A stretch of DNA of 64,000 nucleotides from Octopus vulgaris (taxonomy: Eukaryota), in NCBI GenBank assembly GCA_951406725.2, contig OX597830.1, positions 33,728,001-33,792,000 on the forward strand. Reading direction: 5' to 3'. The notes beneath the pieces were generated by a model that was not told the origin of the DNA, ran no database searches, and saw only the letters and a program-made list of their open reading frames with translations. A program made the translations under genes and the position numbers. The stretch's first letter is position 1; every line of letters begins with the position of its first letter. This document shows, piece by piece, positions 38,139 to 47,761 of this stretch.

Positions 38139-39153
38139 TATATGCATATTCACACATACATATATATATATACACATATACACACATAGACAGACAGACA
38201 GACAGATGGATAGAGAGATAGATAAATAAACAGGTAGATGTATAGATGGATAGATTAATGGATAGATTGGTAGATAGATGGATAGCTAGATGGACAGACA
38301 GACAGATAGATAGATAGATGGATAGCTTGATGGATAGATCAATGGATGGATGGATATAAAAAGAGATAGATACACACAAGAAAATCACTACATCAGATCA
38401 AATAAGCTCTTAAACAAACTGAAAAATCCTGCAGAAGAAGATTTTATTAGGTTTTTGCTAAATGAGAAAAACTTCAACCAAGATCAAAAAGTTAACAGAA
38501 GAAATGATAGATGGCTATGTGCAGACCCTTACGAAGTTCCAAATGTTATGCATTCAAAATTTCCTGCAACTGTCATGGTTTTAAGGGTTGTCAGTAATGA
38601 AGGACATGTTATGCCTCCTTACTTCATTCTACAACGCCTTAGAGTTAACTCTGCCACCTACATTGAGGTCCTGGAAATAACTGTTAAGCTATGGATAGAC
38701 AGTGGATGCAATGGAAGGCCAAATTTTTTTCAGTAAGACTCTGCGCTATCACACATGGCTCTAGTAACACAAGAATGGATGGCTGGAAATTTTTATGATC
38801 GTATAACCAATGCAGTTTGGTCTCCTGATTCCCCAGATCTCAATCCATTGGATTATTACATGTGGAGCATTGTTGAGAGAGAGGTCAGTGAACATGCCCA
38901 TAAGACCAAAGATTCTTTGAAAGATGCCATAGTCAGAATAATGTTCAAAATGTATCAGGACCATTTGATTTGAGCTTGTAAATGATTTAGATCTCATATA
39001 CAAGCAGATGTTGAAGATGAAGATGGCTTTATTGAATAATATTATAGAAAAGAAGGTTTATTTTACAGTTCTGTATTTGAGAGATGAGGAATTATGTACA
39101 TTATTTACATTATTTACATTTGACGGATATTTGTCCTCATCTTGTTTGTTGTT

Positions 39154-39199
39154 AACTCAACTTTTCGGCTGATATACCCTCCAGCCTTCATCAGGTGCC
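39154..39199 (-). ncRNA. Minimal type I hammerhead-like motif (degenerate)
   Basis: Minus strand: ggcac CTGATGA a ggctg-gagggtatat-cagcc GAAA agtt gagtt. Confidence 0.65.
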
Positions 39200-39247
39200 T
39201 TGGGGGAAATTTCAAACCTGGGTTCTCATTCCTAAAGTATTTTTCGA

Positions 39248-39286
<39 letters not shown>

Positions 39287-39456
39287 TATTCAGGTCACTG
39301 CCTGGAATTGAACTGAAAATCTTGGGGTTAGTAGCCCACGGTCTTAACCACTACGCCATGGTCATATGGCGTAGTGGTTAAGAGAGCAGTCTACTAACCC
39401 CAAGATTCCAATTTCCATTCTAGGCAGTGACCTGAATAATAATAATAATAATAATG

Positions 39457-39507
<51 letters not shown>

Positions 39508-39566
39508 TTTACAACAACATGAAGAAATACCTTAGGAATGAGAACCTAAGTTCTAAATTTCCCCAA

Positions 39567-39609
39567 GACACCTGATGAAGGCTGGAGGGTATATCAGCTG
39601 AAATGTGTT
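39567..39609 (+). ncRNA. Minimal type I hammerhead-like motif (degenerate)
   Basis: gacac CTGATGA a ggctg-gagggtatat-cagct GAAA t gtgtt; stem I gacac/gtgtt; the stem III region is deleted. Confidence 0.6.
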
Positions 39610-40024
39610 AGCAACAAAGAAGATGAGGACAAATATCCGTCAAATGTAAATAATGTAAATACCATAAGGTTTATTTTAATCCTCATAGCATATTTTTGAT
39701 AAATAATTATTATCTGTTATTATGTATCTGTTTTTTATAAACATAAATCTGTCCCCAAATACCTTATGCACCCTGTATACTTGTATCATATAATGCAAAG
39801 GATACGGATTCTCATACCCTCCCACCTCTGTATATCGGTTTCTGGTGACCTATAAACAAAGGTACTAATGCTTCTATATTTGCTCATGCTTACACACCCA
39901 TGCAGCATCTCATGCATACACACATGCTTACACACACACACTCACATACACACACACACACACACACATACCAGACCATGACTCTTATGCAGACACTGAA
40001 ATGCATACCCTCTTCCATATGTGT

Positions 40025-40330
40025 ATCTATCTGTCAACCTACCTACCTACCTACCTACCTACCTACCTACCTACCTACCTACTATCTATCTATTTATCTA
40101 TCTATCTATCTACTTATCTATCTCTCTGTCTGTCCATCCATCCATCATCCATCCATCCATCCATCCATCCATCTGTCCATCCATCTATCTATATATCTGT
40201 CTGTCTGTCTGTTTATCTGTTTATCAATCCATCTATCAATCCATCCATCCATCTATCTGTCTGTATGTCTATCTATTCTATCTATCTATCTATCTATCTA
40301 TCTATCCATCCGTCTATCCAACCATCTATT
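40025..40330. repeat. Compound (CCTA)/(TCTA)/(CCAT) microsatellite
   Basis: Read directly from the sequence. Confidence 0.93.
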
Positions 40331-46029: not shown

Positions 46030-47761
46030 AAATGAGCAATGCATCAATGAAGGCAGGCAGGCTAAAACACACTTGGAGACAGGACATCTCAACAATTCTA
46101 ATTCAGATTTGGAGTACTTCAAATCACTGAAAGAAAATTTTGGAAACTGAACAAAAGTTACTTCACTATTTGCTGTAAAGTAAGCATCCCCAAAGCCAGT
46201 TATGAAATCTCCTTGCTTATAGCAAAACATGGAAAGGATCAAACTAGAGAGCTACTGATTAAACCAGCTATCTCAATATTCTTAGAAACTGTACAAGAAG
46301 AAGATAATAGAGATGTCAGGGCCATACCACTCAGTAATAACACTGTCTACAACAGATTTGATGAAATGGGGCAAGATTTTGAAAACCAGCTTATTGAGAC
46401 ATTAAAATCACGAAAATTCTCATTATTAGTGGATGAAACCACATTTCAGGACACTGAGGCCGTGTTATTGACTTATGTGAGATACACTGAGTATGAGGCA
46501 TCATTGGAAACAACCATAAATGCAAAGGATATCCAGAGCACGCTTAAACATTATTTGGATGAAAACAAAATGCCGAAAGAAAACATACTGTCTTGCATGG
46601 CAGATGGTGCACCTGATATGATGGGCAAGAAAACAGGATGCTTAAAAATGATGAAGGATGAAAATCCAAACATGTTGATTGTCCATTGTATCATACACCA
46701 AGAAAATTCGGTTGTCAAGAAACTGTCCCCTGTTCTTAATGAGATTCTATAAGCTGTGATCAAGTGTGTCAATAGCATTAAAGCAAATCCCAAAGCTGAA
46801 CGTCTTTTTAAGCAGTTTTGTGTAAATCAAAGTACTGAGCATGTTTGATTATTGCTTCATACAGAAGTAAGGTGGCTATCAAGTGGAAATAGCTTAAAAA
46901 TGTTGATGGAATTATTTGATCAACTTAACGACTTTCTCAGTGATAAAGTTAAAATGAAAATACTGTCAACAACGGATGGAAAAGCGTTTGTCAGTTATTT
47001 GACAGGCATCTTTGAGAAACTTGGAAACTTAAATAAGCAACTCCAAGGTACAAACATGATGCTTGTTGATGTGAAAGCAAAGACTTTTGGATTCATTGCA
47101 GCCTCGAAATATGCCAAAAAAAATGTTTCCAAAAGAAATTTCAGCCAGTTATACTGGTTGAGTAAAAGTGAGAGGACAAATAATGCAGCCACCATAATCA
47201 TTGACCATTTGGATAACTTTAATAAAGGACTTCAATGACGGATTTTGTGATTTGCAGGCAATGAATTTTCCCACATGGTTAACTCAACCACTGCTGATTG
47301 ACGTTTCTGATGCTGCAGTTCAATACCAAGAAGCGTTATCAGAATTGCAACATGATGAATCAGAGAAGACATTGTTTAAACTGAAAGGTACAAATATGTG
47401 GCTATGTTGAAAGAAAATACCTCAACATCTCTAAATCAACAAGAGAACTATTGATTTATTTTCCTTCGTCTTATTTGGTCGAATGTGGATTCAGTGCAGT
47501 TGACAATTTGTAGGAAGCCAAGAGAAACTGGCATGAAATTACAAAGCATGGTGATTTAACACTGAAGTTAACAAAATTGTCTCTCATCAAATCAAGGATC
47601 TGTGCCATAGGGTTCTCACTAAATGAGTTGAGGTATCATATATCCATCTATATTAAAAAAAAATGTTGGTGAGCACCAGAATTTTTGTCATTAAAAAGTG
47701 AGGTACCAGAAAATTTGTTATTAAAAAGTGGGGCACCGGGAGAAGAGATTGGAAAACACTG
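46030..47761 (+). mobile_element. Decayed hAT (Buster/Charlie-like) transposon with right TIR
   Basis: PLSNNTV, FSLLVDETT, SCMADGAPDMMG, VHCIIHQE and LHTEVRWLS motifs, with stops and frameshifts. Subterminal ttaaaaagtg repeats; end ttggaaaacactg|ttctacat. Confidence 0.92.

Follow-up and report, generated by a model that had tools for sequence, protein, structure and literature searches.

The insertion and its host

What kind of element arrives in a genome as two tRNA-like units joined head to head, each followed by a hammerhead motif, and what machinery makes such a palindrome, is the question raised by a 600-nt insertion in Octopus vulgaris. The initial annotation took it for a ribozyme-bearing SINE, mobilised as one palindromic unit by a Penelope-like element (PLE). 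The reading that we favour, and consider fairly probable, is a single Penelope/Poseidon-type insertion of two short head-to-head copies of an element's 5′ end, the tRNA-derived sequence at that end being a likely internal Pol III promoter.

Coordinates are positions within the window, by which we mean the whole 64,000-nt stretch analysed, and positions in the family are counted from the first G of the head (+1). The insertion is flanked by a 13-bp target-site duplication (TSD), the direct repeat AAGGTTTATTTTA, present as annotated at 39053-39065 and 39666-39678 (both plus strand), and the arms are inverted, at 39066-39359 and 39366-39665. The left arm (39066-39359, minus strand), delimited by family alignment, is a tail-bearing pseudo-LTR (pLTR) copy made of head +7 to +75, an (AAT)n tract and codons 1-52 of an ORF. 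Its head (39291-39359, minus) has an A-box at 39348-39358, a B-box at 39304-39313 and an acquired TTTT at 39316-39319; the (AAT)n tract spans 39251-39290 (minus), the first in-frame ATG of the PLE ORF lies at 39227-39229 (minus), in a frame that runs on into the ORF in natural copies, and the minimal type I hammerhead, mutated at position 15.2 and in stem I, occupies 39154-39199 (minus). The PLE ‘tail’ (39066-39101, minus), about 36 terminal bases where about 37 had been noted, is found on this arm only and is ORF coding sequence. The right arm, on the plus strand, consists of a head running from -4 to +75 (39356-39434), with an intact A-box at 39367-39377 and a mutated B-box, an (AAT)n tract (39435-39516) and a body without the tail (39517-39665), which includes the ORF ATG at 39538, about 43 codons, and a minimal hammerhead (39567-39609) with CpG decay and a 3-nt deletion over the predicted cleavage site. 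The features first described hold up: tRNA-like heads that both have an A-box and, in the left arm, a B-box as well, (AAT)n followed by CTGATGA-A-GGCTG..CAGCY-GAAA in both arms (cores at 39194, minus, and 39572, plus), and ribozymes that are mutated on either side. The 6-nt spacer once placed between the heads is in fact positions +1 to +6 of the right-arm head, and the arms overlap by a 4-nt microhomology, CCAT (39356-39359), that links them head to head. ARAGORN found no tRNA in the whole window and Rfam, including its hammerhead models, matched neither tRNA nor hammerhead in 38500-40300; the family alignment is the basis for calling the head and the ribozyme.

As judged from their sequence, both ribozymes and both putative promoters of the window copy are damaged; the TTTT in the left head and the broken B-box of the right one make this copy probably silent, and it is probably dead. 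Transcription in both directions, or folding into about 260 bp of dsRNA, had also been proposed. The 600-nt insertion does fold, as a single RNA, into a hairpin of 248 pairs, whereas two divergent promoters would yield RNAs of the same sense that do not pair with each other, and dsRNA from the window copy would need read-through from outside.

The host is a remnant of a maT-type Tc1/mariner element (38338-39777, plus; left boundary approximate), whose DD37D spacing was read from the translation and whose transposase matches Pfam DDE_3 only at E=0.006. That the insertion splits this transposon is right in that the element is interrupted, though the break lies just past the transposase stop codon, outside the ORF. 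None of the 11 other host copies examined has an interruption at the site, and each contains the target sequence once, so the 600 bp arrived in one event, as the annotation had it. Elsewhere in the window, 46102-46752 (plus) holds a 216-aa open stretch with no significant Pfam match, which we take to resemble a hAT/ZBED-type transposase fragment.

An autonomous element containing the whole arm

At one locus (L003) a genomic match places a GIY-YIG C-terminus directly before the head. This stretch, used as a query, led to 29 further loci, all 29 of which run on into the head. The autonomous partner with RT and GIY-YIG domains that had been predicted is thus found and has the same tail; mobilisation by a PLE is borne out as well. 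The RT of the longer copies matches Pfam RVT_1 (E=3e-11), and the nearest Atlas clusters, at 0.96, carry HTH_animal (93%), GIY-YIG (13%) and RVT_1 (12%). Pfam gave no score to the EN part of the element; a C-terminal nuclease with CCHH and the motifs VYSIPCSC..LYKGET..EEH..ADH is legible in natural copies. The translations inspected have no CX2-5CxxC linker between RT and EN, of the kind that Neptune and Nematis possess, and by the criteria in the accessible part of PMC8557442, which use this linker to separate those groups from Penelope/Poseidon, the translated family is Penelope/Poseidon.

The layout of the element can be read from full-length copies (L168, L176 and L285), partial tandems (L265 and L270) and two copies with head, (AAT)n and ORF in order, starting at +1 and +4 (L254 and L272, respectively). 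The ORF has the hammerhead in its first codons, then the RT and, at the C-terminus, GIY-YIG, and the body plus tail of the arms correspond to its first 43-52 codons, and natural copies, L262 and L272 among them, keep both in frame with it from one ATG. These copy structures and the shared reading frame show that the unit is head, (AAT)n, ORF and about 40 nt, and that the arm is its pLTR. A separate non-autonomous element with a borrowed PLE tail, as first envisaged, does not survive this result, since the whole arm, head included, sits in the autonomous PLE, both at the 29 loci and in the copies running from head through body to ORF. A SINE distinct from its partner would have the 3′ tail alone in common with it, whereas here head, (AAT)n, body and tail are all part of the PLE. 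The copies show the PLE signature of pLTRs from partial tandems, an inverted 5′ copy and a one-sided tail; the portion of PMC8557442 on PLE anatomy describes an inverted 5′-truncated copy and a one-sided tail of 30-40 bp.

A 30-mer from the hammerhead has 4027 exact matches in the genome which, at a local match rate of 16/98, gives a rough figure of ~25,000 arms, and divergence between copies is star-like, with a mean of 4.1% at non-CpG positions. Contigs of four sequencing runs cover 30, 28, 0 and 11 of the 30 bins of the full-length copy L176, a coverage that cannot show starts, strand or level. The run with 28 bins covered bears the label of a second species, in which the family is therefore present too.

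The tRNA-like head and the 5′ boundary of short copies

Among 27 distinct host tRNAs sampled, the best match of the head is tRNA-Arg (50/77 identical, z 7.3), an assignment that is weak because the sample is without most isotypes. The A- and B-box motifs of the family head are intact, and the acceptor and T stems are unpaired. The head therefore has what marks the 5′ end of tRNA-derived SINEs, namely tRNA kinship and both boxes. We considered whether it belongs to another SINE family and rejected this: among 40 copies selected by their heads, 33 have the body within 700 bp and the other 7 enter the same (AAT)n within the first 95 bases. From -35 to -1 a spacer separates the ORF stop from the head; it bears a weak likeness to a head fragment in inverted orientation (P 0.046 overall; 0.41 with the core removed), which hints at capture of the head through a snap-back junction.

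Short copies begin at a sharp boundary. Exact genome counts are 781 in the ORF (-196 to -175), 831 at -28 to -7, 3293 at +2 to +25 and 2675 at +51 to +75, with reversed-pattern controls giving 0. Copy number therefore steps up at least 4-fold across 8 nt (831 versus 3293), against 6% over the preceding 170 nt, and the local exact-match rates (14/40, 22/47 and 19/83) would widen the step. The same picture emerges from 143 arms at 87 hammerhead-selected loci, where 35 start between -8 and +4, 20 further upstream, and 88 are truncated downstream; no start was scored at -40 to -9 in these arms, and one was seen by eye (L100). The 40 head-selected copies agree, with 33 starting between -7 and +2, 7 running on upstream and none at -8 to -43. 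About 86% of the arms (123/143) are without ORF 3′ sequence and about 14% carry some of it.

As in SINEs, then, there is a common 5′ end just before the A-box. Starts at -6 also occur beside a neighbour other than a head (L084, L237, L259 and L279), and the G at -6 forms a pyrimidine-purine step 13 nt before the A-box, the distance at which Pol III would be expected to start on a tRNA-type promoter. The pile-up coincides exactly with a 12-14-nt palindrome around +1, and many of the -7 starts are perfect snap-back palindromes, which do not by themselves place the RNA end. RNase P-type cutting at +1 is disfavoured, since many ends reach -4 to -6. TTTT is absent from the 2.7-kb sense strand, where a run of four A occurs 32 times; its absence is not significant (P 0.07 by a Markov model, 0.19 by codon shuffle) and is compatible with Pol III read-through. 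Given head and boundary together, Pol III transcription from the head is plausible, and a tRNA-like promoter would explain thousands of short copies starting exactly at the head.

The hammerhead

The family majority carries a complete minimal type I hammerhead, with CUGANGA(N), an extra A after A9, a 5-bp stem II with the G10.1-C11.1 pair, GAAA, palindromic ACGU at 15.2-16.2, a GUU cleavage triplet (UH) and a 5-bp stem I; neither window arm has the full set. The main deletion hot spot of the family is at body position 89, with 14 three-nt and 4 five-nt events in 184 arms, against 4 at the next site. The 3-nt deletion over the predicted cleavage site occurs in 15/98 arms; it keeps the frame, falls in a GT repeat, shows partial linkage with subfamily markers and is common to both arms in 4 of 14 affected pairs. 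These deletions (body 89-93; 39600-39609 in the window) may be either scars of reverse transcription across cleaved RNA or inherited in-frame variants. Truncations at the 5′ side cluster loosely just 3′ of the predicted cleavage site (13/93, P 0.08, not significant), and neither the hot spot nor the cluster proves cleavage in vivo.

Head-to-head pairs and a model for their origin

In a set of 232 arms, 30 of whose loci were picked for their similarity to the window arm, 81 head-to-head pairs were counted; a single tail is present in 70 of them, no tail in 11 and two tails in 0. The hammerhead-selected loci alone give 54 pairs in 87 loci, of which 48 have one tail, 6 none and, again, 0 two. The 3′ ends fall in two clusters about 27 nt apart. 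Among 65 scored pairs TSDs vary from 7 to 18 bp, most commonly 12-13, with one mismatch allowed in the scoring, and the shortest may be chance; the variable length that the annotation had implied is thus seen. Its view of the palindrome as the unit that transposes is wrong, because junctions differ from copy to copy, lying variously in the ORF, the head, the (AAT)n or the body, and on the evidence of these junctions the palindrome is remade at each insertion. The two arms of a pair may stem from one RNA or from two: they have non-majority alleles in common more often than random pairs (4.8% versus 1.4%) and agree at head +64 in 23 of 25 pairs, where 17 are expected if independent; they are discordant at body 131 in 10 of 71 pairs and for the cleavage-site deletion in 10 of 53.

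Two further kinds of junction were seen. At L259 (1317-1973) and L279 (oriented, ~1730) the same junction joins the 5′ part of the ORF, extending ~230 nt past the tail, to head -6, which seems to be an internally deleted derivative copied at least twice. At L258 and L266 (oriented, ~1730) ORF 5′ sequence meets the body at or beside the predicted cleavage site via a short common word.

The biochemistry of an anole PLE offers a template for a model. In vitro it cuts and extends both strands, and reverse transcription starts at two internal sites that define the tail, on RNA that must reach >50 nt past the RT start (accessible text of PMC11167929). On our favoured reading of the octopus family, transcription by Pol III would begin at source loci that have the ORF behind the head, from a point ~6 nt ahead of the head and 13 nt ahead of the A-box. 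AT-rich DNA would be cut by the PLE protein with a stagger of about 12-13 bp, and the two 3′ ends would each prime reverse transcription at an internal site, ORF nt ~129 for one and ~156, which gives the tail, for the other. Both cDNAs would extend as far as the RNA 5′ end and be joined head to head by microhomology or by snap-back at the 12-14-nt palindrome around +1. With internal initiation of this kind, an RNA starting at the head would leave nothing more than a SINE-like arm of ~300 nt, and RNAs begun further upstream in tandem arrays would be the origin of the ~14% of arms that carry ORF 3′ sequence. The 5′ pile-up would then mark a transcription start, and its place relative to the boxes points to Pol III.

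A bolder version, which we put forward tentatively and hold to be doubtful, makes the tRNA-derived Pol III promoter the only one of an autonomous protein-coding Penelope: the whole 2.7-kb terminator-free unit would be read by Pol III, the ribozyme would lie in the first codons of an uncapped message and, with internal RT initiation, every promoter-proximal transcript would become a SINE-like copy.

Other readings of the short copies

The short copies might instead be ordinary 5′-truncated PLE copies of a long Pol II or read-through RNA, with the pile-up a structural hot spot of snap-back or annealing at the -7 to +7 palindrome; on this view the tRNA-like sequence is carried along as a passenger, perhaps an old SINE head taken up by the pLTR. 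That the boundary might be structural follows from the palindrome lying exactly on it, from the many junctions that are perfect short palindromes, and from rotifer PLEs, for which the accessible text of PMC3846280 describes 5′ pLTR palindromes and self-priming together with TATA/Inr-like motifs; the weak resemblance of the upstream spacer to an inverted head fragment (P 0.046; 0.41 without the core) would suit a captured head. However, arms start at -8 to +4 also when joined to the body, to (AAT)n or to genomic DNA, and truncations are dense downstream of +1 and very sparse upstream (781 versus 831 over 170 nt), which two template lengths fit better than one stall. The head has, moreover, retained its A and B boxes while losing the tRNA stems, and on balance we think this reading unlikely.

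Improbable, in our view, is a tRNA-headed SINE that propagates independently, parasitising the PLE and having its own short or palindromic copies as source genes. It would account for the ~86% of arms (123/143) without ORF 3′ sequence, for the many short copies that keep both boxes, for the existence of minor subfamily markers and for the internally deleted derivative that L259 and L279 have in common. Yet the autonomous element contains all parts of the arm, copies diverge in a star-like pattern (mean 4.1% non-CpG), the junctions vary between copies so that the palindrome is not copied as a unit, and the short copies are without the >50 nt past the RT start that the RNA of the anole PLE needs, going by the available sections of PMC11167929. 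A DNA-transposon MITE with terminal inverted repeats, which the long inverted arms might bring to mind, is refuted for practical purposes, as the termini are asymmetric (0/81 pairs two-tailed) where they should be symmetric, the TSD length is variable where it should be fixed, and the arms run on into an RT ORF without a break.

Relation to known elements

The favoured Pol III-headed PLE end is mostly familiar in its parts. In the accessible portions of the descriptions of Penelope/Poseidon PLEs, the anole Poseidon PAc (PMC11167929) and rotifer Pen2/Pen3 (PMC3846280), one finds the same single ORF with RT and C-terminal GIY-YIG, an ORF start inside the pLTR with a hammerhead overlapping it, two fixed 3′ ends with an optional tail, partial tandems, an inverted 5′ pLTR, a palindrome at the pLTR 5′ end and a TSD. 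The octopus insertions differ from these PLEs in being mostly pairs of pLTRs only, at a rough ~25,000 arms, and whereas TATA/Inr-like motifs are proposed for Pen2/Pen3 in that part of PMC3846280, the octopus pLTR begins with a tRNA-derived head with A and B boxes. This head at the 5′ boundary of the pLTR is the new part; architecture, ribozyme and partner are known PLE features. In open-access full text we found no description of a tRNA-headed PLE or a PLE-driven SINE.

Schistosoma has minimal hammerheads on opposite strands 100-700 bp apart, read as truncated PLEs (PMC4209133); they have the same minimal type I motif, with an extra base between 9 and 10.1 and a palindromic 15.2-16.2, and the same inverted layout, but a tRNA head is not mentioned in the accessible part of that paper. 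The schistosome Sm-alpha and Sj-alpha repeats (PMC2770079) are likewise tRNA-derived, SINE-like and hammerhead-bearing, though no autonomous partner containing the head is mentioned in the available text, while the octopus unit is the 5′ end of an autonomous PLE. A small-RNA-derived Pol III promoter inside a terminal repeat is known from the TRIMp3 elements Cassandra, Helenus and Ajax, which, according to the accessible text of PMC10886601, are non-autonomous LTR elements with autonomous partners argued to need Pol II; the octopus head lies in the autonomous PLE itself. Animal non-LTR retrozymes are non-coding hammerhead repeats related to PLE pLTRs, and in the sections available (bioRxiv 10.64898/2026.07.22.740005; PMC7761336) they form head-to-tail tandem arrays, in contrast to the head-to-head pairs, TSDs and tRNA head seen here.

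The family bears on the promoters of PLEs and on how their inverted insertions arise: its insertions, thousands in number, come with a sharp 5′ boundary, two fixed 3′ ends and a strict limit of one tail, which agrees with the two-strand internal-initiation model drawn from in vitro work and allows that model to be tested. With a head that does work as a Pol III promoter, SINE-type transcription would be tied to a PLE, and repeats annotated as SINEs here could be PLE ends. Should the doubtful sole-promoter version be true, it would provide a route to SINE-like families without a separate SINE gene, and part of the ‘SINE’ load of the genome would be Penelope pLTRs. Long inverted repeats make up about 60% of the loci sampled (54 pairs in 87), and host transcripts that read through them could be a source of dsRNA.

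Existing SINE catalogues may already include the short copies. Ohshima and Okada reportedly described the octopus tRNA-derived SINEs OK, OR1 and OR2 in 1994; OR1 and OR2 have tRNA-Arg-like heads, and Twhb is the name of another octopus family of tRNA-derived SINEs. Cephalopod repeat surveys record abundant SINEs and Penelope families, with no such detail of a head in their accessible text (PMC13282606, PMC8967140). A different tRNA-like SINE, identified by eye, lies within the (AAT)n tract of an arm at L021 (1710-2130), and insertions like this one part the head from the body in several loci.
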